Assembly (NCBI GenBank): GCA_043811375.1
Contig: JBDRNJ010000072.1
Location: 64,001 to 128,000, forward strand
DNA length: 64,000 bases
Direction: 5' to 3'
DNA from: a bacterium
GTDB lineage: Bacteria; Zixibacteria; MSB-5A5; GN15; FEB-12
Below are positions 46,010 to 64,000 of the stretch, piece after piece. The position numbers were made by a program, and so were the translations under genes. Under the pieces are notes generated by a model that saw only the letters and a list, made by a program, of their open reading frames with translations, did no database searches and was not told the origin of the DNA. How positions within the stretch are numbered: the stretch's first letter is position 1; each line of letters begins with the position of its first letter.

Positions 46010-46084
46010 TACTTTGGTCAGCCGGATGCCTGACCTATATTTACAAGGGAATAGTAGGACACCTCAGTCACAAGGAGCATAGTT

Positions 46085-47140: not shown

Positions 47141-47181
47141 GAGCTGACGGGAAGTTATGACCCGCATTCTGAGAGGTAGAG

Positions 47182-48492
47182 ATGTTGATTAAAAACCTGA
47201 CATGGCTGCTGCTGGCGTTGCTGCTGGTCGGGTGTTCTCAAAGCCTGTATATGCAGGGACGTAGACACCTCGAAAAAGGCGATTTTGATCCGGCTATTGC
47301 TGCCTTTTACCAGGAGATTAGTGTCAATCCCACCAGCGCCCGGGCCTGGCGGGAATTGGGAGTGGCTTTCTACGAAAAAGGGGATCTGGCAAAAGCCGAA
47401 GACGCGCTAAAACAGGCCAACCAGATAGCACCCGATGCCCGTACCCATTTGTACTTCGGTCTGATCTACGAACAGCAGGAGGAGTACGGCAAGGCCCTGG
47501 GTGCCTACACCCTGTCGCTGAGCCTGAAACCCGGCGGTAAAACGGCTTCGCTGATCCGGTCGCACCTGGACCGGCTGGTGATGAAAAAACTGGAAAGGGA
47601 TGCTGCGCTGGCTGTCGACAATGAATCGGCCATTGACACCGATACGATTCCGGCCAACACTGTCGCCGTTACCAATTTCGATGGTTCGTCGCTGTCGGCG
47701 GAACTGGCTCCCCTGGCTCGCGGTCTGGCCGAACTCACCTCCATCGATCTGGCTAAAGTGCGCGCCTTGACGGTAGTAGAGAGAACCAAGCTGGATTTGC
47801 TTCTCAGGGAACTGGAACTGGGGGTGTCCGGTGTTGTTGATCCGGCCACGGCTCCCAGGCTTGGCCGCCTGATGGGCAGTCGCAAATTGATTACCGGCTC
47901 GGTGCTTAGTATCGGAGAGGACGGTCTGAAGCTGGATGCGGCCGTAGTCAGCACTATCGACAGTACCACCTTACGACCTGAAGGTGTGGAAGGAGAACTG
48001 ACGAAGTTCTTCCACGCACAGAAACAACTGGTGTTCAGCATACTTGAGGAACTGAGTATCAAGTTGTCGGCCGAGGAACGCGATGCTATCGAAGAAATTC
48101 CCACCGAATCGTTCCTGGCATTTATGGCTTACTCGCGAGGTCTGGAATATCTCAGCCGGGGACCACAGTGGTACGGCGCCGCTGAGCGGGAATTCAAGAA
48201 TGCTGTTGAACATGATGGGAATTTCCAGCCCGCCAGAGAGCAAACCAACACGGTTACACAATTGCAGAATGAAGGCAGCTACGAGCAATCATACAGCCAA
48301 TTTGAAACGACTGTCAGACAGGAAAGCAACCAGGGTGTTGTCTCCTCACGCGGCCTGGATGGCGCCCTTGGCACTGTTGCACATAATTCGGGAATAATCC
48401 CCGGTCCCACCGACCGGCCACCGGCCAACGCCCTGCCGGTAACCGGCCAGACTGTCAGCTTCAAAATCACAGGTGATCTCGATGCACGATAA
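47182..48492 (+). CDS. TPR plus CsgG-like domain lipoprotein
   Basis: Lipobox LVGC, about three TPRs, VAVTNF, VVERTKL and LGRLMGSRKLITGSV. Confidence 0.75.
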   Translation: MLIKNLTWLLLALLLVGCSQSLYMQGRRHLEKGDFDPAIAAFYQEISVNPTSARAWRELGVAFYEKGDLAKAEDALKQANQIAPDARTHLYFGLIYEQQEEYGKALGAYTLSLSLKPGGKTASLIRSHLDRLVMKKLERDAALAVDNESAIDTDTIPANTVAVTNFDGSSLSAELAPLARGLAELTSIDLAKVRALTVVERTKLDLLLRELELGVSGVVDPATAPRLGRLMGSRKLITGSVLSIGEDGLKLDAAVVSTIDSTTLRPEGVEGELTKFFHAQKQLVFSILEELSIKLSAEERDAIEEIPTESFLAFMAYSRGLEYLSRGPQWYGAAEREFKNAVEHDGNFQPAREQTNTVTQLQNEGSYEQSYSQFETTVRQESNQGVVSSRGLDGALGTVAHNSGIIPGPTDRPPANALPVTGQTVSFKITGDLDAR

Positions 48493-49603
48493 TACAGCTG
48501 TCAAATGGACCGGGTCCGTGCTGACCGTCCTGGCGGTGCTTCTGCTGGTGTCGCCGGTGCAGAGCCAGATTCGTTTCGGGCAACCGACGTACGGCGACGT
48601 GCAGATCGTGTACAGCCACTGGAGTTTGAAACAGGCCGATACAACCACGGAAATCAACCAGATGACAATACCGGTTACCGGATTTGTCCCTCTCAAAGAG
48701 AATGTGGAAGCCATTTTCTATATTGTCAGTTCGTCCAATACTTTGAAGGCTTCTCAGACGGATTTCAGTTTGTCGGGAATGGGTGACGCCCGGATGCAGG
48801 TTAACCACTCCTTTATGAATGACCAGTTGCTGCTGAGTCTCGGCGTGAACATGCCGACCGGCAAAAAGAAGCTCACCATCGACGAAGAGTTGCTGGTGGT
48901 ACAAGTGCTTTCGCAGAACTACCTCTCATTCCCAATGCGCCGGTTTGGCGAGGGATTCGGTTTCAGCGCTCTTCTGGGAGGCGCTCAGATGCTGGGCGAT
49001 CTGCGCTGCGGGGTGGGCGTTATGTACCAGGTCAACGGCGAGTATGAACCATACGCCGGTTCTGATAAGTACGACCCGGGAGACGTATTGAGTGTCAATG
49101 CTACGGCCGACTGGCAGAACGACCGTACGACCGTCACCAGTGAGATGATCTTTGCTGCTTATGGTGCCGACAAGTTTGCCGGAAGCAACGCCTTCAAACA
49201 GAGCACACAACTTACCGGACGCCTGCGTGTCGTTCACAAAAGCGAAGCTTTTGATGCGGGGGGAGGTCTGAGCTATCTGGCTCGCGGCCGCAACTCCTTT
49301 TTCTACCCGAATAGTACGCAACGTCTTTTTGGCAACGAGTTTATGATCGATGCCAACCTGACGCGAGGTTTCGCCGAACACTGGCGGTTTACTCCCACCG
49401 CGGAGATTCGAATGATCAGCGCTGCCGAGAATAACCAACCCGGCACCGCCAGTATTGTCGGACTGGGCGGCACTGTCGGCCGAACCTTCGGTTCCCAGAC
49501 CACCATTGCCGTAGGAGGCAAATACTTTACCGGCGATGCCGATGGCGGGAATATAGACCTGAGTGGTTTCCAGATAAACGCCAACCTGACAGTGAGCATG
49601 TAG
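48482..49603 (+). CDS. Outer-membrane beta-barrel protein (MetA-pathway-like LSGMGD/PTG motifs)
   Basis: Signal peptide, alternating amphipathic strands, SGMGD, NMPTGK and YDPGD. Confidence 0.6.
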   Translation: MHDNTAVKWTGSVLTVLAVLLLVSPVQSQIRFGQPTYGDVQIVYSHWSLKQADTTTEINQMTIPVTGFVPLKENVEAIFYIVSSSNTLKASQTDFSLSGMGDARMQVNHSFMNDQLLLSLGVNMPTGKKKLTIDEELLVVQVLSQNYLSFPMRRFGEGFGFSALLGGAQMLGDLRCGVGVMYQVNGEYEPYAGSDKYDPGDVLSVNATADWQNDRTTVTSEMIFAAYGADKFAGSNAFKQSTQLTGRLRVVHKSEAFDAGGGLSYLARGRNSFFYPNSTQRLFGNEFMIDANLTRGFAEHWRFTPTAEIRMISAAENNQPGTASIVGLGGTVGRTFGSQTTIAVGGKYFTGDADGGNIDLSGFQINANLTVSM

Positions 49604-49616
49604 GAAGGTGAGAACT

Positions 49617-50978
49617 ATGTTTGATGCAATTCGTCACAGGCATGTGGGGCACCGGGCGGCTATAGCGCTGGCCATACTCATTCTCCTTGGCTGCTCACAG
49701 ACGGGCAACAACGATGTGAACGCTCCTGCAATGTCGTTGCGCATGGAGATAACTTCGCCGGAGTTGATGAAGTTGGTGACTCAGTTTGAACTGGTGGTCA
49801 CCGGCCCGGGAATGGATTCCATCTTTGCCGAGTTGACACTCGAGGGCCGTTACCTGGTGGGAGAGGTGGATGTCCCGGTGGGGCGTGATCGGAAATTTGA
49901 AATCTTCGCCAGGGATGCCAACGGGCGTGAAATATATCGGGGCGTCATCGTCAAAGATGTGTCCCCCGGCGACCAGGTGGAACTGATCGTCAACCTGTAT
50001 CCGGTGGTGCCGCTGATAAAACTCTCTCCCCGATTCGTGCAGGTGCCGTCAGACTCGTCTGGTTCACTGGATGTCAGGGTCTACAGACTGGACAGTCTTT
50101 TCAACATCTCCTTCAAGGTCTACTCCTCGAGTTACCTGGTGCATCTCGACAGTGCAGTGCTGGGGCCGGATGTTGATCCCAATGACTTTCTGTTAGACCA
50201 GACCAGTGGCGATACCGGGTCTTATTCTATTACGCCGTTAGAAGTACATCGCCTTCCGATAGTTGATGACAGCGGCTACGCCACCCTGGCCTCTATTTAT
50301 TACAGCACTTTCTATCCGGAGATGGGCAGTGATACGGCAGTGTTAACCATCGAACCGACGCTGATGTATAAGACGAATGACGACTCGATCCCGGTGGCCA
50401 GTGTCGTGGCCGACGAAAGTCTGATTCAGATAATACCGAATACCGAGAATCCGGTTATCGTTTTCCCTGATGCACAACTGGATTACGTGGTCCGGCAGGC
50501 CTTGGAACCACCGAAGCCAGAAGGAGCTTTATTCCTGTCGGACGTGCTGACGATCAGCGCACTGTATGCGGGTGTTATATCCGCTGAACCCGCCATCTCT
50601 GACCTGACCGGCTTGCACTACCTGACCAATCTGGTTCATCTGACTCTAACTGACAACGATATCCGTGATATTAGCGAGCTTTCCACCCTGGTTAATCTGG
50701 AAATGCTGTTTCTGGGCAACAACGACTCGATCCAAGACATCACGGCATTATCCGGTCTGACGAAACTGCAACAATTGGGTCTCCAGAGTAATAATATCGT
50801 CGATGTTCGGCCGCTGGCGCTGAATAGTGGCCTCGACAGCAGCGACATAGTGTTTCTTGAAAATAACCCCCTGCAGGACATCACCCAGTTGGTGCCACTA
50901 TGTATCCGCCAGGTGGTTGTGTACCTGCAACCGGAAATCAACTACTGTTCCACTATCGGTCGTGAACCTGGCCCGTGA
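49617..50978 (+). CDS. Lipoprotein with Ig-like, cohesin-like and internalin-type LRR regions
   Basis: Lipobox LLGC, FPDAQL cap, and LRRs LTNLVHLTLTDNDIRDISEL and LTKLQQLGLQSNNIVDV. Confidence 0.7.
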   Translation: MFDAIRHRHVGHRAAIALAILILLGCSQTGNNDVNAPAMSLRMEITSPELMKLVTQFELVVTGPGMDSIFAELTLEGRYLVGEVDVPVGRDRKFEIFARDANGREIYRGVIVKDVSPGDQVELIVNLYPVVPLIKLSPRFVQVPSDSSGSLDVRVYRLDSLFNISFKVYSSSYLVHLDSAVLGPDVDPNDFLLDQTSGDTGSYSITPLEVHRLPIVDDSGYATLASIYYSTFYPEMGSDTAVLTIEPTLMYKTNDDSIPVASVVADESLIQIIPNTENPVIVFPDAQLDYVVRQALEPPKPEGALFLSDVLTISALYAGVISAEPAISDLTGLHYLTNLVHLTLTDNDIRDISELSTLVNLEMLFLGNNDSIQDITALSGLTKLQQLGLQSNNIVDVRPLALNSGLDSSDIVFLENNPLQDITQLVPLCIRQVVVYLQPEINYCSTIGREPGP

Positions 50979-51106: not shown

Positions 51107-51658
51107 CTATTCACGGTCAAACCAGACATCCTCGGTGATTATGGCTTCAAAAGTCGTGGTGGTCGGTATTTCAGCTTCGGAGCCTTTGATGAACAGGCCG
51201 AAGATCAGCAGGTAGGACAACAGCTTGCGTCCTTTCCCATCCGCCGCTATGATCCCCGATCCATCTTCTGTCACCGCGGATAACATAATTGGCTTGTCAC
51301 CCTCGGGTTTGAACTCACCTTTGGGCTGAAGGTCTATCAGCTCCACCTTCAGGAAACCGGGCTTGCCGCCCTTACCTGCGGCCTGCACCGATGTGATCCG
51401 GGCTGATCCGTTGGCACCTTTTTCGACTATCACTACGCCACCGATATCGATGTCGCTTTCGAGCGTAATCTCAACTTCATCACCAGGTTTGACAAACTTG
51501 GACGAAACATCGGCAACAAACTTAACCTGCACTTTACTGCCGGCCGTCACTTGCACTGCGGCCGAGGCGTCAGACACCAATCCCAGTGACAACAACAGCG
51601 CCAGCGCCGCAACCGTCAATCTCGTCAGACCTTTGTTGAGTATTGTTTTTCTTTTCAA
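51107..51658 (-). CDS. Exported VirB10/TrbI-like beta protein (hypothetical)
   Basis: SPI signal (ASA), pattern V(T)AG.....V.SS....GD.V...L..D.......G....I..V..AG..G..G.L.V, a hydrophobic insert, then EIP....F...I..DV. Recognised by eye only. Confidence 0.5.
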   Translation of the reverse strand: MKRKTILNKGLTRLTVAALALLLSLGLVSDASAAVQVTAGSKVQVKFVADVSSKFVKPGDEVEITLESDIDIGGVVIVEKGANGSARITSVQAAGKGGKPGFLKVELIDLQPKGEFKPEGDKPIMLSAVTEDGSGIIAADGKGRKLLSYLLIFGLFIKGSEAEIPTTTTFEAIITEDVWFDRE

Positions 51659-51672
51659 CTCGCACCTCTATG

Positions 51673-53898
51673 TTATTTGAACTTGGGCAATTTTTCCTCA
51701 AGACTCTCCTGGCAACTGATTGTTACCTCACCCGTGTTGAATTTCAGGGTAGCATCCAGGTCAAAGATCGAGTAAGGTTCCTTCAACTCCTCCGATTCCA
51801 TCGGGCTTACTCCCCAGGTCTCCGAACTAGGGTCGGTATGCTTCTTGTCCAGGGCAATCAGAATATGATCACCGTTCTTCCATGTAATCCTGAACTCACG
51901 ACCGGCGATGTACATCGCCTTGGGCCAGTCAGGTTCCTGGCCGGGACGGGTTACACAAACGTGAATGTGATGGTCAGGAGGACAGTTGACGACCTTAAAT
52001 GTGTACGCACGGCTGTTCTTGAAATATTCGACCTGGCTGAGATAGGCGTTAGCGCTGTCTAAGGCACCGCCCTCAAGGTTGGGTCTCAATTTCTTCAATT
52101 TCGTTGGCAAAGTAACCAGCAGGTACTTGGGATCGTCCATTTTCTGTTCGTAGCCGGAAAGAGCACCTGCAAAATCGGAACTGGCCGTCTGGACGGTCTC
52201 TTCCTTGACTGCCACCTGCTCCTGTGTAGCACCCTCGGCCATTAGGGCATCGAGCAACTGCTTCTCTTCCGGACTGAGATCCTGGCCATAGTTTCCGCGA
52301 TCATGTTCAATCTGCCGCAGAATCTGGCCCCAAAGCGAGTCCGAAACGGCAGCAGTCGAGGCCAGGATCGACTGCTTAAACAACTCCCAATAAATCAGCA
52401 CTCGTCCACTGCGAGAATACAGTGGCGACGTGTTATCAAGTTTCTGAAAGTAGGCCAACTCATCTTCAATTCCTAAGTGTGCTGAATCCATCACCAGACT
52501 ATCTCCGCCGGGGTACCGTTGCGGCCAGCTATCCTTGACACCGACGATGTCTCTGACATCAGCTATGACAAGGTTAAGCCGTTTACCAGCCGCTTCTGTA
52601 CCGAGACCTTTATATAGTTCTGCAATCCGGTTAGATGAGACGTGGAATTGATTGTAAAAAGAACGCACTAACCACTTACGGCTATAGCGGTCATAGGTGT
52701 TCTTGATTCGATTGCGCTCCGTGCCAAGGAGGTTGTCTTTCATGAACTTGTGCGCACCGAGAATGTTCTCTTCAACTCGTTCCGTTGTAGACAGCAGGTA
52801 CTGGAAATGATACAGGTTCGGCAAGGAGTAGGCCGCCACCCAGATCAGACTCAATACGGCGGCATATTTGGCTACTTTCCGCAGAATCGATATACGCTTA
52901 TTCCGGGTGATCGTTTTCAGCATCCAGTAAAACGGCTGACGGACTCCGACCGGACTAATTTTGCCCGGCGGCTTGTACAGGGAACGCCCGACCTCGGTGC
53001 CGATTTTTTCGGGTTCCTGTCCGGTGGCGGAGACAAAAAATATCTGGAAGTTCAGCGTACGACCGACCACCACCCGGAGGAATTCCTTGAGCTTGATTAA
53101 AACGTTTCTGACGGAAGCGGCCCACTCGGAATCGGAGGCAATGCGATTGGAATTGAGCACTCTCTCCAGGAAGAACTCATAGTCTTCGGCGAAAAAGTGT
53201 TCATCCTCGGCGGTCACCAGAACCGTCTGCTTGTCAGATCGTTCGGGCGAATAACCGGGCAGGCAATCGGCCTTGGTTACGACCAGCGCCAGCGGAATGG
53301 GCAGGCGTCGGTGCAGCGGAGCCAGTTGTTCCACAAAGTCAATAAAGGAAGCGACATGTGCCTGCGTATGTTCTTCGGAGCCGAGCATCTTGGGATCGTA
53401 GAAAAACACGATGCCGTCACAGCCGGACATAAAGTCGGTCACCTTCTCGGAGAAGTCATGTTTCGGGGAGATGGCCACGGCCTTGCCGTCGTAGTCGTAG
53501 GCAACTACCTTTATCTTTTTCTTGCGGTCTACGACTGCGGTGAACTGCAGAACTCTCTCGCCTTTGGTCGGCACGGGAAATTTCTTGTCTTCGCGGAGAT
53601 CGACCACCGTACCCTCATTGCTGGCCGTCCCCACTCCCCAAATATGCCGGAAATTGGCCAGTAAAACACCGGCCGTAGCGCCGTCGGTGACTGAAATTTG
53701 CAGATCCCGCGATATCTTGCTATCCTCGTTGAGGACGGTGTAATAGACGGTCTTGCCGCAGTTGGCGTGACCATAGACGCCTATTCGCACACCGGCCGGC
53801 CATTCAAAGCCGCCTTCGGCGGGAGCACCCTTAGCCTGGCGCTTGGAGGCCGCTTTGGCGCCTTTCTTGAAGAACTTGAATATCTTGCCGAATTTCAC
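51673..53898 (-). CDS. Membrane-anchored TRAFAC GTPase, TssM/IcmF-like topology
   Basis: G1 GHANCGKT, G3 DYDG, G4 LVVTKADCLPGY, G5 VSAT, then a TM segment at about aa 345-365 and a long helical C-terminal region. Confidence 0.65.
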   Translation of the reverse strand: MKFGKIFKFFKKGAKAASKRQAKGAPAEGGFEWPAGVRIGVYGHANCGKTVYYTVLNEDSKISRDLQISVTDGATAGVLLANFRHIWGVGTASNEGTVVDLREDKKFPVPTKGERVLQFTAVVDRKKKIKVVAYDYDGKAVAISPKHDFSEKVTDFMSGCDGIVFFYDPKMLGSEEHTQAHVASFIDFVEQLAPLHRRLPIPLALVVTKADCLPGYSPERSDKQTVLVTAEDEHFFAEDYEFFLERVLNSNRIASDSEWAASVRNVLIKLKEFLRVVVGRTLNFQIFFVSATGQEPEKIGTEVGRSLYKPPGKISPVGVRQPFYWMLKTITRNKRISILRKVAKYAAVLSLIWVAAYSLPNLYHFQYLLSTTERVEENILGAHKFMKDNLLGTERNRIKNTYDRYSRKWLVRSFYNQFHVSSNRIAELYKGLGTEAAGKRLNLVIADVRDIVGVKDSWPQRYPGGDSLVMDSAHLGIEDELAYFQKLDNTSPLYSRSGRVLIYWELFKQSILASTAAVSDSLWGQILRQIEHDRGNYGQDLSPEEKQLLDALMAEGATQEQVAVKEETVQTASSDFAGALSGYEQKMDDPKYLLVTLPTKLKKLRPNLEGGALDSANAYLSQVEYFKNSRAYTFKVVNCPPDHHIHVCVTRPGQEPDWPKAMYIAGREFRITWKNGDHILIALDKKHTDPSSETWGVSPMESEELKEPYSIFDLDATLKFNTGEVTISCQESLEEKLPKFK

Positions 53899-53937
53899 GT
53901 CTGTATTACAACTCCCAAATCAGCATACTCAGCGGGA

Positions 53938-54867
53938 TCATCTGGGCTTCCAGTCTATATGATTCCGCTGGTCAAGTTGCTCCAAGCGATCCCGGCCATG
54001 CTCGCTCCACATGATCGGTACATAGATGGCCAGCAGCACAAACAGCACAATCAGCAGCCCGTAAAACAGATAAGCCGGGTTACGCTGTGACAAAACCAGA
54101 CCGAAATAACGCCAACTGGAGAAGACACCCCGAATCTTTCCCCAGAGTTCCCCGAAAAAACCCTTCACCCGCAACCAGAAACGCGGATCCGTCAGGTAGC
54201 CCCACTGTTTCAGATAGTACTCATTGAGCCTGCTTTTCTGACGCAACTTATTAAACGCTGCAATCCGCTTGAGATGAAACTCAAGCGTGGTTCGATCAGC
54301 CAGGAGATCCGAGCCAAGCTGCAGGCGACGCCGGGCCAGCTGAAGAATTTTCATCGGATCGGTAAGACCGCCGAACTGTTCCGGGCTCAGGTCGGTCTGC
54401 AGGCTTCTGCCGTAGCGATTCAGATAGAGCGCAATCTCGCTTAAGAAAAACGAATTCAGGCTAACGTTGTCGTTGAGGCCGCCCTGTCGAAACAGCAACG
54501 GGACCAGATGATTTTCAAAAAAAGGCACATCCTGTTTGACGGCGCGAACCCCGCGGCACATGCTGTAAGCATGGTTGGAGAGACCGTCGATGTCGGCTTC
54601 CGACTCAAAAAACGTAATCAGCAACTGAATTGTCAGTTGTCGCAGGTCGGAGGCGGTTAACGACGATTGTTTGATTTTCTCCAGGAAGATCTCGTCTAAA
54701 GCCACTGCCTTGTCGCGCTGCTTCCGGAGTGCCTGGAAAACGGCGCGGATACCCCGGTAGTTCTGCAGAAAAGCTTCCGTCTGGAACTGCGCGTAGCTGC
54801 GCTCATAGGTATCCAGATACTTGAAGAGGTTATCAACGTGCGATCTGACAGCTAAACTTTCATCCAT
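53938..54867 (-). CDS. Helical protein with a single C-terminal TM segment (TssL/DotU-like topology)
   Basis: Directly follows tssK; TM segment YLFYGLLIVLFVLLAIYVPIMW near the C-terminus. Confidence 0.5.
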   Translation of the reverse strand: MDESLAVRSHVDNLFKYLDTYERSYAQFQTEAFLQNYRGIRAVFQALRKQRDKAVALDEIFLEKIKQSSLTASDLRQLTIQLLITFFESEADIDGLSNHAYSMCRGVRAVKQDVPFFENHLVPLLFRQGGLNDNVSLNSFFLSEIALYLNRYGRSLQTDLSPEQFGGLTDPMKILQLARRRLQLGSDLLADRTTLEFHLKRIAAFNKLRQKSRLNEYYLKQWGYLTDPRFWLRVKGFFGELWGKIRGVFSSWRYFGLVLSQRNPAYLFYGLLIVLFVLLAIYVPIMWSEHGRDRLEQLDQRNHIDWKPR

Positions 54868-54880
54868 CCCGGTACACATC

Positions 54881-56329
54881 CTACATAGCGTAAACAATCA
54901 GATCAGATTTACCCAGACCGGTAAACTTGCCGGCGTCAGGCGCTCCCCTGAAGATCAGTGTAACCTGACGCACCGCCGGTGAGCGCAGCATGTCCTGGGG
55001 ACGCAGGGCAATTTTGTTTTCAAACGTGACCACGTCAACCTCGATGGGATCCGTCTCGCCCAGTCCGCGGGCATCATTGAGCCCCAGACGCACCAGCATA
55101 CTGGACCACTCCCCGCTGCTGAAGAGGTCTTTGGCTATCAGTATCACGGTGTCGGATATGGGACAGGGTTCGGGAATGTCAATCAGCAGGTAAGCCAACT
55201 CACCGACCTGCTCCAGCCGGGTTCCCCCGTATTCCACGATGCGGTACGTTCTTCCCTGGTAGGTGAGAGTATCGGTGGCGACCGCCTGCTGGCCGAGGTC
55301 TTCTTTTTTCACCTGCGCCAAAAAGCCCATGATCCCACGAACCTGACCGAGAATCTCGTCAATAACCGACAGATGTCCGCCCAGGTCACGGTGGTTGTAT
55401 TCGGCCATCAGAAAACCATCCACCATAGACATGAATCGGCCCACTTCAGTGTTGGCCTGTTTGACAAAGAAACGTTCGTTCAGGAAATCCTTCAGACCGG
55501 GCCGGAGATTCAGCAGCGTCGTGAACGCGCGAAACAACTTCTTGAAAAACACTACCAGATGAAGCGGGTGTTGAGCGTTCCTGCCGACGACAAGCTCGTC
55601 CAGGGTTGAGGAGAGATGATAGGCAAATTGAAATATGGTTTCCTTAAAAGCAGTCTGCAAATCCGTCTGCTCACCGGCCAGGACACCTCCGGCCGCCACA
55701 GCCTTATACGCCTGTGACGACAAGGACAGCAGTTTTTCCAGCCGGTTGTGAAAATCGAGAGTCTTCTTTGATAACCGCTCATCGGCAGCGAGAGTCAGAC
55801 AGGGCGGAAAGTAATTCTGATCGGCAGTTACCTCGCTGCCATCGACAATCACCTGAGCGATTTGCAGAGAACTCCCTTCGGGAACCTGGGGCGGCCGACC
55901 CAGGGCCAGCCGGTAACTGTTGACCAGATACGGAATGCGGGGCAGGTCGTCGGCCGGGTCCGGGTCGCCGACTTCCTTTCGGGCGGTCGGATCGATCCCA
56001 ATGAAGACGGGCACGACACCCTGTTCAACATCCATCTCAGCCGTTACGCTGCCGTGATTGGATTCGTTTATTTCAATAACGCCACCATCAGGCGTCAACG
56101 CCTGACAACGCACAACCTCCACCCCCAGACGATTGGAACTGGCCGAAAGATTGAGACTCAAGGCTGGTCTCCCCGAGAAAGTCTTGCGTACCAGACCATA
56201 GCGATCGTCTGCAGTCAGTGCGTGCCAGCGGGCCAACTCCTGAAAGTACTTTTCCTGGTCTTTGAGATGTTGCTGAGTCACCAACATCCCATCCTGCCAG
56301 TTCACCGAATATAAGTGCAAGTCACTCAT
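54881..56329 (-). CDS. tssK: T6SS baseplate subunit TssK (subtype iii-like)
   Basis: VNWQDGMLVTQQHL...YGL, CQALTPDG, VGDPDP...PRIPY and YFPPC. Confidence 0.85.
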   Translation of the reverse strand: MSDLHLYSVNWQDGMLVTQQHLKDQEKYFQELARWHALTADDRYGLVRKTFSGRPALSLNLSASSNRLGVEVVRCQALTPDGGVIEINESNHGSVTAEMDVEQGVVPVFIGIDPTARKEVGDPDPADDLPRIPYLVNSYRLALGRPPQVPEGSSLQIAQVIVDGSEVTADQNYFPPCLTLAADERLSKKTLDFHNRLEKLLSLSSQAYKAVAAGGVLAGEQTDLQTAFKETIFQFAYHLSSTLDELVVGRNAQHPLHLVVFFKKLFRAFTTLLNLRPGLKDFLNERFFVKQANTEVGRFMSMVDGFLMAEYNHRDLGGHLSVIDEILGQVRGIMGFLAQVKKEDLGQQAVATDTLTYQGRTYRIVEYGGTRLEQVGELAYLLIDIPEPCPISDTVILIAKDLFSSGEWSSMLVRLGLNDARGLGETDPIEVDVVTFENKIALRPQDMLRSPAVRQVTLIFRGAPDAGKFTGLGKSDLIVYAM

Positions 56330-56353
56330 TATCTTGCCTCTAAGTATTAGCGG

Positions 56354-56382
56354 AATTTATGCACCCTTGACAGCTATGTCAA
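56354..56382 (-). promoter_or_regulatory. Internal sigma70-type promoter upstream of tssK with an overlapping palindrome
   Basis: TTGACA-N17-TAAATT; the -35 box is one arm of TTGACA-N4-TGTCAA. Confidence 0.55.
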
Positions 56383-56482
56383 CCTCAATAGACATCATTT
56401 GCACCGGAGACCTGTGATTGATTGGGAATTCCCACTATCGGTGCGGCAAAATACAGTACAGCCAACACCCTTTCGACAACGA

Positions 56483-57394
56483 TTACACAAAGGAAGAGTA
56501 CCCCAGAAAACGGTTTTCCCGGTTGCGGCCAAGGACAAAGCCACGCCCGTCGACCGTAATTTTTACCCGGCAGGCCATATTGTTGGGCATACACGTGCTC
56601 AGCATCCATTCCAGTTTGCGTCTTTGAAGCTGTCCGGGAAGAAGGCGGCGCACGTCGGCGGTGCTGACCCCGCGGATATGAAGTTCGTAGGCAGAATCGC
56701 ATTCCTTGAATGACCGGCCGATCAGAAAATCGCGGCCCAAAGCGCTTGACTTTCCCAGGCGAGATTGAATTTGGTCCGGGATAACATGCTCGGTGGACAC
56801 GTTTTCCACCATCCGGAAATCATACCCGAATATGCGGCGGAGAACTTTCTCGATCATTTTGGAATTGCCGGCCCATCTGTGAAAACGGGGCATAACCGAG
56901 ACCCAGAACAATATCTCGTCGACATCATCAGTGGGAGTGAAAGGCTTAAATCCAAACAACTCCAGATACCTCAGCAGGTGATCGATATCAACCACACCGA
57001 ATGCATACCGCAGTCGGTCATATCGGGCCAGTCCGTCATGACGAATGACGGCGGCATCGAACGGCGCCATCAGATGGCGGGCTTTCTCTTCCCAGGCACC
57101 GGTTCGGGGTATCACACCCTGCAAGCCGTAGAACATCTGGTAGGGCAGATAGTCCACGGCGCTGATACAGCCGACTTCCAGCATAATTTTAGTGTCGTCG
57201 CCGAGTTCCGTGCCCGGACCGGGTTTCTGCCGCCGGACTTCACCACGGTAATTTTCATATTCCCCGACCGCCAGAATATCCACATTCCGGATTTCTACAC
57301 CCATTTGCTTCAGTACGCTGAGAGCGGTGGCAAAATGGAAAGGCTGCCGCCGGGAGCAGAAATCCGGCATGACTTTAGGTTCCACCACGTTCAT
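56483..57394 (-). CDS. tssG: T6SS baseplate subunit TssG
   Basis: LPYQMF...EKARHLMAPFD...GN....KVL...LG.DFLIG pattern; follows tssF with an ATGA overlap. Confidence 0.7.
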   Translation of the reverse strand: MNVVEPKVMPDFCSRRQPFHFATALSVLKQMGVEIRNVDILAVGEYENYRGEVRRQKPGPGTELGDDTKIMLEVGCISAVDYLPYQMFYGLQGVIPRTGAWEEKARHLMAPFDAAVIRHDGLARYDRLRYAFGVVDIDHLLRYLELFGFKPFTPTDDVDEILFWVSVMPRFHRWAGNSKMIEKVLRRIFGYDFRMVENVSTEHVIPDQIQSRLGKSSALGRDFLIGRSFKECDSAYELHIRGVSTADVRRLLPGQLQRRKLEWMLSTCMPNNMACRVKITVDGRGFVLGRNRENRFLGYSSFV

Positions 57395-59055
57395 GGCCGG
57401 AGAATCTCCACCTGGAACTGGGTATTGATCGGCGAACGCGACTTGAGAAAACTTGTCAGACGCTTCCGCAACAAGTTGATTTCATCTTCACAATGAAACC
57501 GGTCATGCTCGACATTGACTCGAACAACTATACAGCGTCGGACGCCACGGGGTCCCCGCTCGACACCATTGGAGCATTCGGCTTTTTTTATCCGGGGGTC
57601 AAAGGTGAGCGTCCAGTCGGCCAGTTCCGGAAAGCCCAAAGCTCGATCTCGGTTACGCAGCCGGGAGGTAACCTCGGTTACGATTTGCGCCTCTGTCCTG
57701 GCCGGGACCGCCCCGGTCGTGGGGATAATGTTTTCGACCGCTTCTATCCCGGGGTGACTGTCGTATAGTTCGTTGATTTCGCCGATCTCAATGCCGTTGG
57801 CGCTCACTCCTTCCGTAACCGTGTAAGTAACGGAGATAGAATCGGGCGGTTGGTCGATACCGGTGGCGAAATCAAACCACAGCACCAGTTTCCCCTGCCG
57901 GTCCTCCAGCGAATAATGGCCGCCCCGGTGATCAGGGTGTATCTGATGTACGGCCACATACTCCCGACCATCAGTATCAACCACACCGGTGATATCCAAG
58001 ATGTCGGCTATAGGTTCGGGCAGTTCCACTTCCACCAGCCGGTTGGAACCGGTATGCTTAAACAGTTTCAATTCGTTTTTATTGACGGCGATCAGAGCGT
58101 CAAAGCAGAAGTCCAGGGGCGATTTGAAATCGGATCGATCACCACCGGCCGGGAGGTCAAGTCGCACCCAGTAGTGATTCTCCCGGAGAGTATCGCTGCT
58201 TATACCGCTGCCGTCAAGCTGCCGCAGCAACCGGGGATCGGGTGTGCCCATCTCCCAGGTTACCGCGAATGACTCAGGAAGCGTGACGAAGCCGTCTTCC
58301 AGCGGTCCGAATAACTCGGCACCGGTTCTCAGACCACCCCAGTCACGGTCATCTCCGTCGACGCCCACAACATCGTCAATACTGCTGGTTAATCCCGGAC
58401 AGAAACCACAATCCTCATAGAATGAACCCTGGCGTGAACCGGGGTACCAGCGCGCCCACCGCAACCGGCGTTGGATCGGCAGTGAAGCTTTCAGGAACAA
58501 CACGGCTCCGGCCAAATCAGACGGCTTACCACTGTAGTCAACCGCGACATATAGCTGACTGGGATCAGCCGACGTGTCCCGGACGTTCGCCGGTGGCGTT
58601 ACCGGGGCAGCCCCCGGCTGCCGGGGTGACAGGTCGATTACCCGGTCACCCTGCTTCAGGAAAACATGTTTCACACTGGCGGCGAACACCCTTTCGTTCT
58701 TCAGGGGAGAGAAATAGAGTGTTCGCCCTCCTTCACGTTTTTCCTTGTAGAAGAAACGGGTGTGCGTGTCAACTTCGACCACCGGATCTATCGGCCGGCA
58801 GCGCACCACCGTGTGAGCCGGGATCGGCCATCGGCTGCACTCGGGGGCCAGCGATCTGATCAATGCGCCGGCTGCATATTGCCAGGTTCCGTGAAGCTTG
58901 TCATCGATACCGGCCAATTGGTACGAGTATAGCTGCAAGAAAATTCTAACCAGCGGGTCCAGTCGTTCCGGCGACTGAGGTACCTGGCTGTCGAAAGACC
59001 GCAACTGGCGGTGCATGTCACTGAATATCTGTTCCGGCGATCGTGTTCGACTCAT
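57391..59055 (-). CDS. tssF: T6SS baseplate subunit TssF
   Basis: DPLVRIFL...LAPE...PIPAHTV...FSP, and a gp6-like C-terminus (GVSANG, RLRNRDRA). Confidence 0.78.
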   Translation of the reverse strand: MSRTRSPEQIFSDMHRQLRSFDSQVPQSPERLDPLVRIFLQLYSYQLAGIDDKLHGTWQYAAGALIRSLAPECSRWPIPAHTVVRCRPIDPVVEVDTHTRFFYKEKREGGRTLYFSPLKNERVFAASVKHVFLKQGDRVIDLSPRQPGAAPVTPPANVRDTSADPSQLYVAVDYSGKPSDLAGAVLFLKASLPIQRRLRWARWYPGSRQGSFYEDCGFCPGLTSSIDDVVGVDGDDRDWGGLRTGAELFGPLEDGFVTLPESFAVTWEMGTPDPRLLRQLDGSGISSDTLRENHYWVRLDLPAGGDRSDFKSPLDFCFDALIAVNKNELKLFKHTGSNRLVEVELPEPIADILDITGVVDTDGREYVAVHQIHPDHRGGHYSLEDRQGKLVLWFDFATGIDQPPDSISVTYTVTEGVSANGIEIGEINELYDSHPGIEAVENIIPTTGAVPARTEAQIVTEVTSRLRNRDRALGFPELADWTLTFDPRIKKAECSNGVERGPRGVRRCIVVRVNVEHDRFHCEDEINLLRKRLTSFLKSRSPINTQFQVEILRP

Positions 59056-59087
59056 ATCGGTTCTTTTGCTCTCTGGCTGGTGGTCAG

Positions 59088-59462
59088 TCAGGCCAGGGTG
59101 TAACTGGCCTGAAATTTTTTCTCTTCATTGCCGTCCCGGTAGTTCCCGCTGACCTTTACCACCAGACCCAGCGCGTGGGATCGGTTATCACCCAGGCTCA
59201 CGAAAGACACCGATACATCCGACAGCCGTTTCTCAAACTTGTCGATGGCGTTGCGTAAGCTGGATCTGATGTCAGCTTTGTTGGCCACAATGATATCGGA
59301 GTATTCCTTCTCCCAGAGACTACAGCCGAATTCGCGATTGAAGGGTATCATGCCGACCCGCGTGGACAAAAGCAGACCGATGGAGTATTGCAACGACTGG
59401 TGCAGGTCAGTTCGGGGCAGGTAGCCATCACGCAGGATCAGCGGTAGTGCCAGGTACTCCAT
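59088..59462 (-). CDS. tssE: gp25-like baseplate protein TssE
   Basis: Motifs SIGLLLSTRVG, EFGCSLW and AIDKFEKRL. Confidence 0.85.
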   Translation of the reverse strand: MEYLALPLILRDGYLPRTDLHQSLQYSIGLLLSTRVGMIPFNREFGCSLWEKEYSDIIVANKADIRSSLRNAIDKFEKRLSDVSVSFVSLGDNRSHALGLVVKVSGNYRDGNEEKKFQASYTLA

Positions 59463-59471
59463 GGTTCGGGC

Positions 59472-61238
59472 TCAGTTGATCTTGACCAGGGTGCCTTTTA
59501 CGGTCACTATGGCGCCGCCTTCCAGAGTGGCGTTGAGACCGGCCTTGACATCACAGTTCATACTTCCCTCGGCTTTCAGACTACCTCCGGCTTTCAGTTG
59601 GGTATCCCGGGTGCTCTCAATGGACACTCCAGCCTGTGACTTGACGGTTACATCACCGCTGGTGCTCTCGAGGCTTATATTGGCACCTTTGAGGCTTATG
59701 TCTCCGTCACTCTCAATACTGATTTTGGGGCCGTCGAGTGTCAGAGTAATGGCGTTCTTGTTGTCCTTCTGCACGACAACAATTGACTCGGAACCGGAGG
59801 TGTCGTCGAAATAGATCTCGTTGCCGCTTTTGGTACGGAAGAGTTTGAGGTTATTGTCGGCGCCGCTCCAGCTAACCGGATGGTCCAGCGGGGGTACATC
59901 CCTGCCGTTGTACAAACTGCCCAGCACCAGTGGTTGCGACGGTCGCCCCTGTTCGTAAGCGATCAGCACCTCATCATCAACCTCCGGCAGACAAAACAAG
60001 CCTTTTTTTTCGCCGGCGTGATGAGTAAGCACCCGCAGCCAGACATCCGGCTCGGCGGCCGATCCACCCTTGACATTCCAGTGCAGTTTCACCTTAACGC
60101 GGCCGAGCTGGTCGGGATCATCGGTGTCCGTCACCAACGCCGTCTGCAGGTCCGTAAATGGTCTCGCCATGAATTTGCGTTCGGGAAAGGCCAGGTCCAG
60201 CGGTGTGCATACAAACGTATTATGATACTTGCCGCTTTCGTCAAAGAGATGGCTAACCGATTTAACCCAGAAGTTGCCGTCCATCTGATCCATGCCCTTG
60301 ATTTTGACGCAACGACCCGCTTTGATCGCCGGAACAATCGACAATCCCCGGCAGGTCACTATTCGGCCGACGGCGCTCTCCCTGACCAGGGTCAGCGCGT
60401 CATCGAGCTCGGACTGGCTGGCTGCCTGGTGTCGCGGCGAGAAGTTCGCTGACGCATACATTTCCTGCGAGGCGTCGTGAGCAACTTTCGACATATCCGA
60501 CAGCGATGTTCTTAGGGCGCCGGAGGTCTCACTGTCAAAGACCTCTTTCTTGGGATAGTTGAAGGCCTGGGAACATATTTTTTCAGGACCGGTGCCCAGT
60601 CCCATGGCAAATGATCCCAGTGTCTCCCGCCAGACAAGTTCTTCGCTGTCGGCACTGCCGGCTTTGGCCAGGTGAAACTCCTGGCCGTCATAGAATGCGA
60701 ACATCCCGGCCGTTGAGGCCAGCCGCATGATGTAGCGGTAGTCCGTTTCACGATACTGCACACTGTACGCCAGCGTACCGTTGGTTGATTCGATTTTGCC
60801 TACCGTAACCGGGTAATTACCGATGATACTGTTGACAATGTCACTGGCGCTTTGTTCGTGGTACAGTGCATTCTGGCCCGCGCCATCGGCCGCGATAGTC
60901 GGGCTGTGCGCGGTCACCAGCACCGTGTTCAAGCCGTCGATGCTGTTGTCCAGGTTTACCTGAGTGACCATTCCCACGAACTCCAGCAGCCGGCCGGAAT
61001 CCACCACTCCCCCCAGAGGCGTGATAGTCACCGCCACGGACTTGCCCAGGAAAGCCGTAAATGTGGTCGGATCACCAAAGTCCCGGTCCGCAGCCACCTT
61101 GCCCAGTTGTCGCAGACGAACCTTTAGAACATGATGATCATCCACGAACTGATCCAGCTGGACCGACGAGATATCGTGCTTGATCTCTTTGCCGTCAATG
61201 CGAATCCGGCATTCCGCCGAAGTCTGTAGTGTTGCCAT
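59472..61238 (-). CDS. vgrG: VgrG spike protein, no C-terminal extension
   Basis: Motifs VQYRETDY, DPDQLGRVKV, LPEVDDEV.IAYEQG.P..P.VLGSLY and RTKSGNEI, plus gp5 beta repeats ending VKIN. Confidence 0.92.
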   Translation of the reverse strand: MATLQTSAECRIRIDGKEIKHDISSVQLDQFVDDHHVLKVRLRQLGKVAADRDFGDPTTFTAFLGKSVAVTITPLGGVVDSGRLLEFVGMVTQVNLDNSIDGLNTVLVTAHSPTIAADGAGQNALYHEQSASDIVNSIIGNYPVTVGKIESTNGTLAYSVQYRETDYRYIMRLASTAGMFAFYDGQEFHLAKAGSADSEELVWRETLGSFAMGLGTGPEKICSQAFNYPKKEVFDSETSGALRTSLSDMSKVAHDASQEMYASANFSPRHQAASQSELDDALTLVRESAVGRIVTCRGLSIVPAIKAGRCVKIKGMDQMDGNFWVKSVSHLFDESGKYHNTFVCTPLDLAFPERKFMARPFTDLQTALVTDTDDPDQLGRVKVKLHWNVKGGSAAEPDVWLRVLTHHAGEKKGLFCLPEVDDEVLIAYEQGRPSQPLVLGSLYNGRDVPPLDHPVSWSGADNNLKLFRTKSGNEIYFDDTSGSESIVVVQKDNKNAITLTLDGPKISIESDGDISLKGANISLESTSGDVTVKSQAGVSIESTRDTQLKAGGSLKAEGSMNCDVKAGLNATLEGGAIVTVKGTLVKIN

Positions 61239-61272
61239 GGGATACTATTCCGGACTGAGAGAGGAAATTGCA

Positions 61273-61301
61273 GTCGGGCGGGATGGCGTCCCGCCCGACC
61301 G
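61273..61301 (-). terminator. Hairpin between tssD and vgrG (attenuator or REP-like)
   Basis: GTCGGGCGGGA-tggcg-TCCCGCCCGAC. Confidence 0.5.
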
Positions 61302-61311
61302 ATTAACCGGG

Positions 61312-61722
61312 TTATTCCTCCCAGCGATTATCAATCTCGGAGTCACCCACTGTCAACTTGTGGCAAGAGACTTCGAAATACTGATATATCTGTTCATCAG
61401 GGCGGTCTTTAACGTGCGGAATAACCTCTTCGTATTTGGTGATGAATCCTTCCTCCCAGACCAACTCCTTCATGGTAGCGTCATCGGGGTTCTTGAACGT
61501 CACCTTGCCACCCTTCCAGTTGGGTTTGCTGGTGTCCATCGCCCAGCGGGCGATATCTACATTACCCTCTTTGTCGGACTCAACTTTTATTTTGATGGTC
61601 CCGGCGTGGGCACGATCCGAGGGACGTCCCGTCTCATCCTTGGCCGTGTACAGGTCGTAAGAAACTTCATACACATTCTTGTAGGTTACGCCATCGATTT
61701 CGAGAACTGGTCTGCGTGCCAT
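61312..61722 (-). CDS. tssD: T6SS tube protein TssD/Hcp (subtype iii type)
   Basis: DETGRPS....GTI.I.VES.......W......K.G.VTF...MKEL.....I.KYEE pattern. Confidence 0.88.
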   Translation of the reverse strand: MARRPVLEIDGVTYKNVYEVSYDLYTAKDETGRPSDRAHAGTIKIKVESDKEGNVDIARWAMDTSKPNWKGGKVTFKNPDDATMKELVWEEGFITKYEEVIPHVKDRPDEQIYQYFEVSCHKLTVGDSEIDNRWEE

Positions 61723-61791
61723 AATCTAACTCCTTACAGGTAGTTTAATTTACAGTTAGAGTTGCCGTCGAATGCCGCTCAACTCCAACGA

Positions 61792-63222
61792 TTACTTGTC
61801 CTTTACGTTCGTCTGGTTGTCCTCGTTCCAGGCGGTGAACTCGATGTTAAACGAACGAGCCGGATACTTCGGGTTCAGAGCTACCTTGATGTCGATTTCC
61901 TGCCGTTTGCGCATTTCCTCGTCGGCGACAATCAAGACCTGGTAGTCCTGCAGAATATTGTCGCCGCCGCTTATCGCATTCATGAACTTGTCGATATCGC
62001 GGCGCATGGTATCAACGAATTTCTGATCAATAACCGAGAAGGTCTGCTTGTTGAGATAGTTGCGCAGAGTTTTGTAGACGTAGTCGTAGGTGCGCCGGAT
62101 CGAGTATACGTTGAACGTCTCCTTGCTGAACAGTGTCGAAGCGCCCATGGCCACTGCCGTTCCTTCGAAATTGACCATCGGGTTAATGCCCTTTTCATTG
62201 ATCTTGCTGGCATCTGGCTGGTTGGCCTTGAAACGCAGGTACTTGGCATCGGCAATCTTACCGTGCTTGTAACCGGCCATCGGCTGTTGCATGCCGACCG
62301 TCGTATCGCCCTGATACATCTTTCCGGCCACTGCCGCTGAGGGTGGGATCCACATGTCGTCATCTTCGTATTGGTTGGCGCCCCGGGCCAGCAGGTAGTT
62401 TGCAAAGACAGAGGCATACTGTTTGTAGTTGTCAATCCCCGGCAGGTTGGCATAGTTCGGGTCTTCCAGCATGTCCATCAGTTCTTCGAACTTCTCGAAG
62501 TTGGGCAGGTCCGTCATCACGTGGACCTTATTAGCCAGGCCCAGTTGTCGGGCCACCATGTCTATATTCTCCACACTACCCAAATAGCCGGGAATCACCG
62601 CCATCGAGAAGCATTCCTTAATACTCCACTCGCGGTAGAGATCGGCGATGGCCTTGGTCAACTGCTCAAACTTCTCCTTGTCGTCGGGGTCAGTCAACTC
62701 ATCACCCGAGACATTGGCAAACCAGGCGTTAACTTTTTCGTCCGGTTCCAGTTGGGCGTTGGCGAAGAACTTGTCGATAGCCCGGTAGGTGGTTTCTATT
62801 TCGCGGCTGGCCCGGTGGACCTTTTTCATGTTCTTGTCGAGATTGGCTTCCAGTTTAGTCGCCTGTTCATTGAGATTCTTGCGGATGTCGTCGATATTGT
62901 CACTTTGGGACAGGTTCTCAATCCACACCTTGAGCCGCTCGGCCAGCAGCTTGCGCTGGGTAGCGAAGTTCTTTTTGGTCAGGAATTCCTTACGTTGGAA
63001 GTCCTTCTTGGGGTCAAGCCATTCGACCCCCCGCACCAGGTCACCATCGGCCGTCTTAAACGACGGCAAGAGGCCGGCTAACTTGCTGAAGTCACCGAAA
63101 GAATCACTGAGTATCGAGGCAAACTCTTCTTCAGAGACTTTTTCAGCGGCGGGGGCCTCGGGTTTTGCTTCGGCGGCCTGTTCCGGCTGCGGTTGCGGTT
63201 GATTTTTTTCCTCTTCACCCAT
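61792..63222 (-). CDS. tssC: T6SS sheath large subunit TssC (DUF5458-like)
   Basis: Motifs ETTYR...FF.N, IPGYLGS, ANYLLARG, WIPPSAAVAGKMY and Q...G.KHG. Confidence 0.88.
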   Translation of the reverse strand: MGEEEKNQPQPQPEQAAEAKPEAPAAEKVSEEEFASILSDSFGDFSKLAGLLPSFKTADGDLVRGVEWLDPKKDFQRKEFLTKKNFATQRKLLAERLKVWIENLSQSDNIDDIRKNLNEQATKLEANLDKNMKKVHRASREIETTYRAIDKFFANAQLEPDEKVNAWFANVSGDELTDPDDKEKFEQLTKAIADLYREWSIKECFSMAVIPGYLGSVENIDMVARQLGLANKVHVMTDLPNFEKFEELMDMLEDPNYANLPGIDNYKQYASVFANYLLARGANQYEDDDMWIPPSAAVAGKMYQGDTTVGMQQPMAGYKHGKIADAKYLRFKANQPDASKINEKGINPMVNFEGTAVAMGASTLFSKETFNVYSIRRTYDYVYKTLRNYLNKQTFSVIDQKFVDTMRRDIDKFMNAISGGDNILQDYQVLIVADEEMRKRQEIDIKVALNPKYPARSFNIEFTAWNEDNQTNVKDK

Positions 63223-63245
63223 TAGTCAATCACCTCCTTCGGTAC

Positions 63246-63686
63246 CTACTCACTCAGCAGGTCGATATAGTATTGGGCTGCTTTCAGCAGCGCTTCTTTT
63301 TTTTCTTTGTCTTTCAGTGTCTTCTTAAGAGCATTATTCTTCTTCAGTTGCTTGTCCAGGTCCGTCATCATTTCCTTGCGGTAGTATGTTTTCTGAAGGT
63401 GGTCGTTCTTTTCGACGAGCTCCTTGGAAGTGAAATCTTTCATCGCCTTAATCTCAAAGTCGGCATTGATCGGTTCGCCCTCTTCGGTCTCCAGTTCGGT
63501 CGAGAAAGACGGGTGGAATTTCTCAAAAACCTCTTTGAGATTGTTGCACCTGACTGGCGATACATCCACTTCTTCGTCGCTGTTCAAGCGAGCAGCGTAG
63601 AGCAGCTTATTGGACGGCAGGAGTTCAACCGGAACGGAATCGTCTCTTTGGATCCGTTCAGTTGCTCCCAGCATGAATTTTGCCAT
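63246..63686 (-). CDS. tssB: T6SS sheath small subunit TssB
   Basis: P.NK.L....L...EVFE.F.P....E.E.EEG...DF pattern, and QLKKNNALK. Confidence 0.82.
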   Translation of the reverse strand: MAKFMLGATERIQRDDSVPVELLPSNKLLYAARLNSDEEVDVSPVRCNNLKEVFEKFHPSFSTELETEEGEPINADFEIKAMKDFTSKELVEKNDHLQKTYYRKEMMTDLDKQLKKNNALKKTLKDKEKKEALLKAAQYYIDLLSE

Positions 63687-63707
63687 TGGCGCCTCCTGTG
63701 AGCTATA

Positions 63708-64000
63708 TTACTTCGAATCTGACATTTTTTTGCTGTTAAACACGTAGGTATCATCCTCGACTTCAATCATGATGTCATCACCCGGTGACACCTTCCCGGT
63801 GATAATGTCCACCGATAACCTGTTGATAATGTCCCTTTCGATAATGCGTTGAATGGGGCGGGCGCCGAGTTCAAAAGTGTATCCGTCGACCGCCAGTTTA
63901 TGTTGAGCCTCGGGACTGAGTGTGACGTGGACGTTCTGGTCTTTCAACAATTGGCAGACCTGGTCGAATTCCAGACCGGCGATAACCTCGACCTGTTCCT
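63708..64000 (-). CDS. Clp AAA+ ATPase C-terminus (probably TssH/ClpV), 5' part beyond the window
   Basis: Frame is open to the right edge; GYTFELGARPIQRIIER (D2-small domain); lies directly upstream of tssB. Confidence 0.75.
   Translation of the reverse strand, partial: EQVEVIAGLEFDQVCQLLKDQNVHVTLSPEAQHKLAVDGYTFELGARPIQRIIERDIINRLSVDIITGKVSPGDDIMIEVEDDTYVFNSKKMSDSK

Follow-up and report, generated by a model that had tools for sequence, protein, structure and literature searches.

A type VI secretion system (T6SS) of Zixibacteria joins a contractile tail resembling that of subtype iii to three genes downstream of tssK, which likely encode a third kind of membrane complex by which the tail would be moored; we estimate the probability of this reading at about 0.7. 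The locus lies in a 64,000-nucleotide stretch of contig JBDRNJ010000072.1 (the window; G000:C72:64001-128000) from a genome (G000) that is 95% complete. A first-pass annotation, made from the letters of the window, had read a minus-strand order clp-tssB-tssC-tssD-vgrG-tssE-tssF-tssG-tssK, followed by three genes without annotation, in a host outside Bacteroidota. All eleven open reading frames (ORFs) plus the end of clp were recovered on the minus strand in this order; the first nine genes match Pfam and NCBIfam families, and no family exceeds the cut-off for the last three, whose products comprise 309, 741, and 183 amino acids (aa). The named relatives are mostly Zixibacteria, and we infer that the host is one of them. 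In what follows, G-numbers designate the genomes compared and L-numbers related loci; clade A comprises families f1, f3, f4, and f10 and clade B families f5, f16, and f17. A TssK profile was searched against 285 Zixibacteria genomes and matched 145, in the close clade A and in the distant clade B, which places the iii-like tail in roughly half of the set. The T6SS variant is real, widespread, and apparently unpublished. Among papers on Zixibacteria or Eisenbacteria with T6SS, no title or abstract opening described this system, and the phyla listed in the available part of PMC9113992 do not include Zixibacteria.

The tail proteins resemble subtype iii

The assignment of the tail to subtype iii was borne out by the TssC and TssD families (PF17541 and PF17642) and by the comparisons of TssC and TssK. 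In BLASTP searches, TssC shared 28 to 30% identity with four Bacteroidota TssC proteins (E values of 1e-54 to 1e-60), whereas three subtype i TssC proteins gave E values of 0.055 to 3.1 only; by this measure TssC is not of subtype i. Profile alignment with hhalign placed TssK nearer to subtype iii (E of 4e-28) than to subtype i (E of 1.5e-12). Among 72,556 plasmids, TssK matched four records, all from Bacteroidota; ten strong TssC matches and the best TssB matches were also from Bacteroidota. TssK ends, in addition, in a conserved domain of about 140 aa (window positions 54881-55300) that is missing from Bacteroidota TssK (382-391 aa) and that matched neither the subtype i head (E of 0.53) nor the subtype iii tail. 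In a tree restricted to the subtype iii rows and the Zixibacteria/Eisenbacteria rows, the two groups stood on opposite sides of a branch with 100% support, and the latter group was internally deep (35-40% identity between clades). The TssC and TssK trees are unrooted, the subtype i and extracellular contractile injection system (eCIS) branches being too long (those 4 rows were left out of the TssC tree), and hold no subtype ii and iv sequences.

Known anchor genes were searched for in the window's genome

The membrane complex of subtype iii is TssNQOPR, and this subtype is reported from Bacteroidota only, with none outside among more than 20,000 complete genomes (PMC10781749). Profiles of TssN and TssR found nothing in three Zixibacteria genomes (G000, G052, and G074) and matched in two Bacteroidota plasmids that served as positive controls; the TssO profile, which had no positive control, did not match in the window's genome. 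A tblastn search of the same genome with TssN, TssO, TssQ, and TssR from Bacteroides, Tenacibaculum, and Hymenobacter returned nothing under an E value of 0.3. TssN, TssO, TssQ, and TssR thus went undetected in G000, and TssP yielded only unlinked PKD-type matches. Canonical tssNOPQR genes just past the window edge were ruled out, as the upstream genes are clp, unknowns, a DcrB-like gene, a HEAT-repeat gene, and a PAAR gene. The DotU, IcmF_N, TssJ, and ImpA_N profiles (for TssL, TssM, TssJ, and TssA) likewise found nothing in G000, and each matched in controls. Judged from the sequences of their defining anchors, the system belongs to neither subtype i nor subtype iii.

The lack of a recognizable outer membrane lipoprotein such as TssJ or TssR, together with the missing TssA, would fit a machine that, anchored to the inner membrane alone, targets the cell that made it or functions after lysis instead of piercing neighbors. 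Membrane-tethered contractile systems occur in Streptomyces or cyanobacteria and provide a model for such a machine. We regard this explanation as very unlikely. The system has the T6SS hallmarks TssK, ClpV, VgrG, PAAR, and variable candidate effector genes, a separate eCIS-like locus is present on contig C38, and tssA is not part of the subtype iii core listed in PMC10781749 either.

The three genes accompany tssK

By the terms of the first-pass annotation, tssNOPQR genes past the window edge or a lack of conservation of the three genes beside tssK in related genomes would speak against its reading. Neither was the case, and the order tssK-309-741-183 recurs in related loci of clade A and of Eisenbacteria. 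When loci were fetched around the GTPase gene (the 741-aa gene), the entire 14-ORF order was repeated in 20 of 20. When they were selected by tssK, the order 309-741-183 followed it in 52 of 54 loci with at least 4 kb downstream; these 54 were drawn from 79 loci found by TssK patterns among the best 80 of 203, all of clade A. The two sets are not independent, because the genomes overlap and are kin. Presence of the GTPase and of TssK, compared by eye, agreed in 60 of 61 genomes (TssK in 41 of 42 GTPase-positive and in 0 of 19 GTPase-negative genomes), and the sole disagreement concerned a genome that is 71% complete. A broad GTPase profile matched 0 of 12 TssK-negative genomes; among distant genomes with TssK, it matched 12 of 13.

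In clade B, the 309-aa gene directly followed tssK in all 17 loci. The GTPase gene came next in 12 of them, and a GAP1-N2-like gene after it; in family f5, the 183-aa gene followed on the opposite strand in 8 of 10 loci. The five clade B loci lacking an adjacent GTPase gene have it elsewhere in the genome, in four cases (G241, G252, G253, and G255) beside the 183-aa gene. Among the homologs of the 309-aa protein, one bears the name Candidatus Eisenbacteria. Its locus keeps the order tssK-309-GTPase-183, and its tail arrangement differs, with tssB/C/D/D/vgrG divergent and upstream. The two Eisenbacteria loci (L149 and L150) stem from the same organism. Because the search for Eisenbacteria GTPase homologs gave just 3 proteins, a single named organism documents the system beyond Zixibacteria.

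The 741-aa protein is a predicted membrane GTPase

The 741-aa protein carries the motifs G1 (GxxxxGKT), the G2 threonine, G3 (DYxG), G4 (TKxD), and G5 (SAT); across 29 diverse rows they vary little or not at all, and GTP binding and hydrolysis are predicted from their intactness. In the structural model (predicted local distance difference test [pLDDT] of 90, predicted template modeling score of 0.58), an N-terminal basic helix precedes a GTPase domain at about 37-310. A long helix (320-382) then spans the predicted transmembrane (TM) segment at about 340-360 and leads to periplasmic helical bundles and a C-terminal beta domain. Hydropathy placed a TM segment near 335-360 in 19 of 20 relatives, and among the matches listed by Foldseek for the model there were GTPases only. 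With hhalign, the cytoplasmic half aligned with the N-terminal part of TssM over 138 columns around G4-G5 (probability of 78.5%, E of 1.7e-5; reversed control, E of 0.05), and the full-length protein gave a probability of 31% and an E value of 5e-4; the TssM alignment used was narrow (17 rows, mostly Rhizobiales). With a TssM profile, 24 members of the GTPase family outscored all 17 other P-loop/NKxD ORFs of G000, and the Pfam family PF14331 reached an E value of 0.05 in one of four relatives scanned. The GTPase domain is thus probably a remote homolog of the TssM nucleotide-binding domain, as far as sequence comparison can tell. The protein had been described as a GTPase of TssM topology; a likeness to TssM was supported for the cytoplasmic GTPase domain and not outside it, and the periplasmic half matched nothing.

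The 309-aa protein is TssL-like at most by position and topology

The 319-aa ORF after tssK probably starts at 54867, where its relatives begin, which gives a protein of 309 aa. Hydropathy revealed one C-terminal hydrophobic segment (277-295 in the 319-aa ORF), and likewise in 20 of 20 relatives. This is a small family, represented by 43 clusters (50% identity) in a database of 1.84 billion entries. The model is all-helical and confident (pLDDT of 91.6). A TssL topology had been proposed for this protein. A cytoplasmic helical domain with a single C-terminal TM segment agrees with it; homology to TssL was not recovered, since the comparison with the TssL profile, for which only three TssL rows were available, gave an E value of 0.3-0.4, and Foldseek, which can miss remote helical folds, found no PDB match to the model at E ≤ 0.001. 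Weak alpha-solenoids topped the Foldseek results, with no TssL among the 50 top ranks listed. The ESM Atlas held no usable match for the 319-aa ORF, and PDB sequence searches with alignments of the 309-, 741-, and 183-aa families gave nothing at E < 0.09.

These data bear on the possibility that the module is a TssL-TssM pair, shortened and strongly diverged, in which the clade B GAP1-N2-like gene would be TagF, so that a subtype i complex would sit on an iii-like tail. Order and topology equal those of tssK-tssL-tssM-tagF in Rhizobium, the GTPase matches TssM at G4-G5, TagF and the GAP1-N2-like protein align at a D-x-x-G-R motif (not significantly), and FHA, kinase, and PP2C-like genes lie near relatives' loci, as in subtype i. 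Against these points stand the values for the 309-aa protein and TssL (E of 0.3-0.37 with the three rows), the confident model that lacks both a PDB match and a listed TssL, the failure to find TssJ, the unmatched periplasmic part of TssM, and the TssK C-terminal domain that does not match the subtype i head. On balance, this explanation appears possible but doubtful.

The 183-aa protein may be related to TrbI/VirB10-like domains

By eye and hydropathy, the third protein starts with what looks like a signal peptide; it has an N-terminal hydrophobic segment, its core is rich in beta structure, and a hydrophobic hairpin is conserved. As a lead, the closest Atlas cluster to which a Pfam family is assigned shows TrbI in 16% of its members (score of 0.79). 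The protein also aligned (probability of 94.8%) with two Zixibacteria proteins whose matches to PF03743 lie below the cut-off, which may tie it indirectly, in two steps, to TrbI/VirB10-like domains. In VirB10, a hairpin forms the outer membrane pore. In some relatives, the 183-aa gene is followed by genes for large beta-helix/Ig surface proteins with FlgD-like or type IX secretion system-like C-terminal domains (L022:1057-4428, L024:1257-4433, and L038:1-4065).

Model of a proposed third membrane complex

In the model that we favor, the cytoplasmic GTPase domain would join the 309-aa protein in an inner membrane hub that docks TssK, probably via the extra TssK C-terminal domain. The channel would be walled by the periplasmic, helical half of the GTPase. 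The secreted 183-aa protein might oligomerize at the outer membrane, where its hydrophobic hairpin would insert to form the exit pore or to close it. Assembly or firing may be gated by the binding and hydrolysis of GTP; sheath contraction would then eject TssD/VgrG/PAAR, and the split ClpV would recycle the sheath.

Several results weigh against such a complex or against the proposed role of its parts. The TM segment of the window's own 741-aa protein stayed below the hydropathy threshold. Its TssM likeness is weak (hidden Markov model scores of at most 11 bits, in the G4-G5 region only), its periplasmic half did not match TssM (E of 0.21), it is far shorter (741 versus about 1,176 aa), and DO-GTPase2 outscores IcmF_N for the family in Pfam. 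The 183-aa protein had no direct match to canonical plasmid TraB/VirB10 (E of 0.025) or to the PF03743 profile. Its family is wider than the T6SS, occurring in 172 of 285 genomes versus 145 of 285 for TssK (in TssK-negative genomes the matches were mostly weak, with a few strong ones in G112, G124, G198, and G025), and the gene is unlinked in G074, G075, G174, G179, and G244. TssP-like PKD domains are encoded elsewhere in G000 (tblastn, E of 1e-4 to 1e-6); they are generic and not linked to the locus.

Architecture of the locus and the split ClpV

The features of the locus are given in Table 1. The core components TssB, C, D, E, F, G, H, I, and K plus PAAR are all present, TssF being weak and TssH divided over two ORFs. 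An eCIS identity was rejected in view of TssK, ClpV, and the iii-type sheath. The cluster extends about 8 kb past the window edge and ends at the PAAR gene.

Table 1. Genes of the Zixibacteria T6SS locus and the convergent operon
Feature	Position	Strand	Basis or remark
clp 3′ part (C-terminal half, 368 aa, AAA2 + D2-small)	63708..64000	-	Pfam ClpB_D2-small 63708-63998; ORF extends to C72:128814
clp N-terminal half (486 aa, Clp_N + AAA1)	C72:128811-130271		Beyond window edge
tssB, sheath small subunit, 146 aa	63246..63686	-	PF05591 (T6SS_VipA) 9.5e-8
tssC, sheath large subunit, 476 aa, subtype iii family	61792..63222	-	PF17541 1.6e-71
tssD/Hcp tube, 136 aa, subtype iii family	61312..61722	-	PF17642 8.4e-20
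vgrG spike, 588 aa	59472..61238	-	PF05954 (Phage_GPD), PF04717 (Phage_base_V); TIGR01646 over cut-off
tssE, 124 aa	59088..59462	-	PF04965 (gp25) 1.4e-12
tssF, 554 aa, divergent	57391..59055	-	PF05947 0.009, under cut-off; NCBIfam baseplate TIGR02243 4.4e-5; between tssE and tssG
tssG, 303 aa	56483..57394	-	PF06996 2.4e-17
tssK, 482 aa	54881..56329	-	Pfam T6SS_VasE; iii-like residues 1-343 + conserved C-terminal domain of ~140 aa
All-helical protein with a C-terminal membrane anchor (319-aa ORF; 309 aa from the probable start at 54867)	53938..54897	-	No Pfam family
741-aa membrane GTPase (predicted)	51673..53898	-	DO-GTPase2 23.5 bits vs cut-off 27
183-aa predicted secreted beta-rich protein	51107..51658	-	No Pfam family
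Convergent, possibly regulatory operon with genes for a TM Ser/Thr kinase, CsgG-like, TPR + CsgG-like, 376-aa unknown, LRR lipoprotein	44333..50978	+	

The halves of ClpV/TssH overlap by four bases via an ATGA stop/start (G000:C72:127708-130271). Because clp is split in 75 ORFs and fused in 13 across related loci (L022-L140), a frameshift artifact was rejected, and ClpV is here a natural two-subunit protein; in the Eisenbacteria locus it is unsplit. Upstream of clp, the variable region (G000:C72:130495-136288) holds two unknown ORFs, a DcrB-like and a HEAT-repeat gene, another unknown, and the PAAR gene. Two unknown ORFs of 388 and 379 aa are candidate effectors, and the C-terminal extension of the PAAR protein is shared with a 297-aa ORF of the region.

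Neighboring genes and second loci

In 30 of 42 clade A loci, a CsgG-like or 376-aa gene of the convergent operon lay no more than 10 kb downstream of tssK. A kinase-CsgG-like operon also occurs in the Eisenbacteria locus (L149:15793-19561), and a second copy lies away from the T6SS in the window's genome (G000:C10:49960-53620); none was seen in 17 clade B loci. The operon possibly encodes a sensor or an outer membrane partner. In clade B, the GAP1-N2/DENN-like gene after the GTPase gene occupies the tagF slot (L121:3089-3898, L126:15675-16490, and L135:2713-3549); matches to GAP1-N2 were under the cut-off in four of four clade B proteins scanned, the alignment of the DxxGR motif with TagF was not significant, and no GAP1-like gene was found in G000. 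Because kinase, FHA, and PP2C-like genes (PP2C by eye) lie near relatives' T6SS loci, phosphoregulation by analogy with subtype i is suggested.

These neighbors also bear on the idea that the GTPase and its partners are a captured Double-GTPase/GAP1 conflict or signaling module that regulates firing, with the channel encoded elsewhere (for example by the CsgG-like and 376-aa genes). Of the Pfam families, DO-GTPase2 fits the GTPase best and exceeds the cut-off in two of four relatives scanned (23.5 bits, with a cut-off of 27, in the window), and the clade B GAP1-N2-like gene directly follows it. TM-anchored GTPase-GAP1 systems are described in PMC7159879, and the CsgG operon often lies near tssK. 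We nevertheless consider this unlikely: there is a single GTPase and no GAP1-like gene found in G000, the CsgG operon has its copy off the T6SS and its clade B gap, and the three genes track tssK more tightly than that operon does.

A second contractile locus (G000:C38:121-9642) resembles Afp/PVC-type eCIS, with a sheath, two tubes, VgrG, gp25, and baseplate genes, as judged from weak profile matches and sequence motifs.

Relation to known systems and significance

With subtype iii of Bacteroidota (PMC10781749), the Zixibacteria system shares the TssC (PF17541), TssD (PF17642), TssB, and TssK families, the lack of detected TssA, J, L, and M, and a membrane-connector gene beside tssK, a position that such genes hold in both known T6SS types. 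It differs by the lack of detected TssN/O/Q/R, the extra 140-aa domain of TssK, the position of TssC across the fully supported branch, and a host outside Bacteroidota. With the subtype i complex TssJ-TssL-TssM (with TagF), it shares the order tssK, tail-anchored protein, and NTPase-TM-periplasmic protein, the remote match of the nucleotide-binding domain, and kinase/FHA genes near relatives' loci; in contrast, its tail is not of subtype i, no TssJ was found, homology to TssL was not detected, and the 741-aa GTPase lacks the IcmF periplasmic domains and is shorter than TssM. TssM has an N-terminal TM pair, which is missing from the Zixibacteria GTPase. Likeness to the Double-GTPase/GAP1-N2 conflict systems (PF19993 and PF20013) consists in the GTPase family, membrane anchoring, and the clade B GAP1-N2-like neighbor. 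Unlike them, the Zixibacteria system has a single GTPase inside a contractile-tail operon, with no FNIII or GASH partner seen and no GAP1-like gene in the window's genome; the main text of PMC7159879, as available, describes DO-GTPase/GAP1 systems and makes no mention of T6SS. As for small secreted TrbI/VirB10-like proteins (PF03743 neighborhood), the hydrophobic hairpin of the 183-aa protein sits where the two aligned Zixibacteria proteins have a glycine-rich hairpin; the protein differs in lacking the TM/linker region and a direct PF03743 or plasmid TraB match, and the locus contains no type IV secretion system genes.

Three scenarios for the origin of the two unrelated T6SS membrane complexes were left open in PMC10781749. 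This question becomes testable by structure and phylogeny, because here an iii-like tail joins neither known complex but a GTPase with TssM-like features. Tentatively, the system may be a separate T6SS subtype, deeply diversified in Zixibacteria/Eisenbacteria, that keeps an ancestral state in which an iii-like tail stands on a TssM-related GTPase with a VirB10-like outer membrane pore cap; we hold this to be a speculative possibility. If true, Bacteroidota would have swapped the ancestral GTPase anchor for TssNOPQR, while Pseudomonadota elaborated it into TssJLM; the three-way question would be settled, and TssM would be tied to the Double-GTPase/GAP1 systems. ATPase activity of TssM has been reported (PMC3346141), and its GTPase motifs were noted in PMC8508121, where the role of nucleotide binding is called unknown. 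If the proposed complex exists, the three-gene anchor would be the smallest T6SS envelope module and would offer a clean model for that role.

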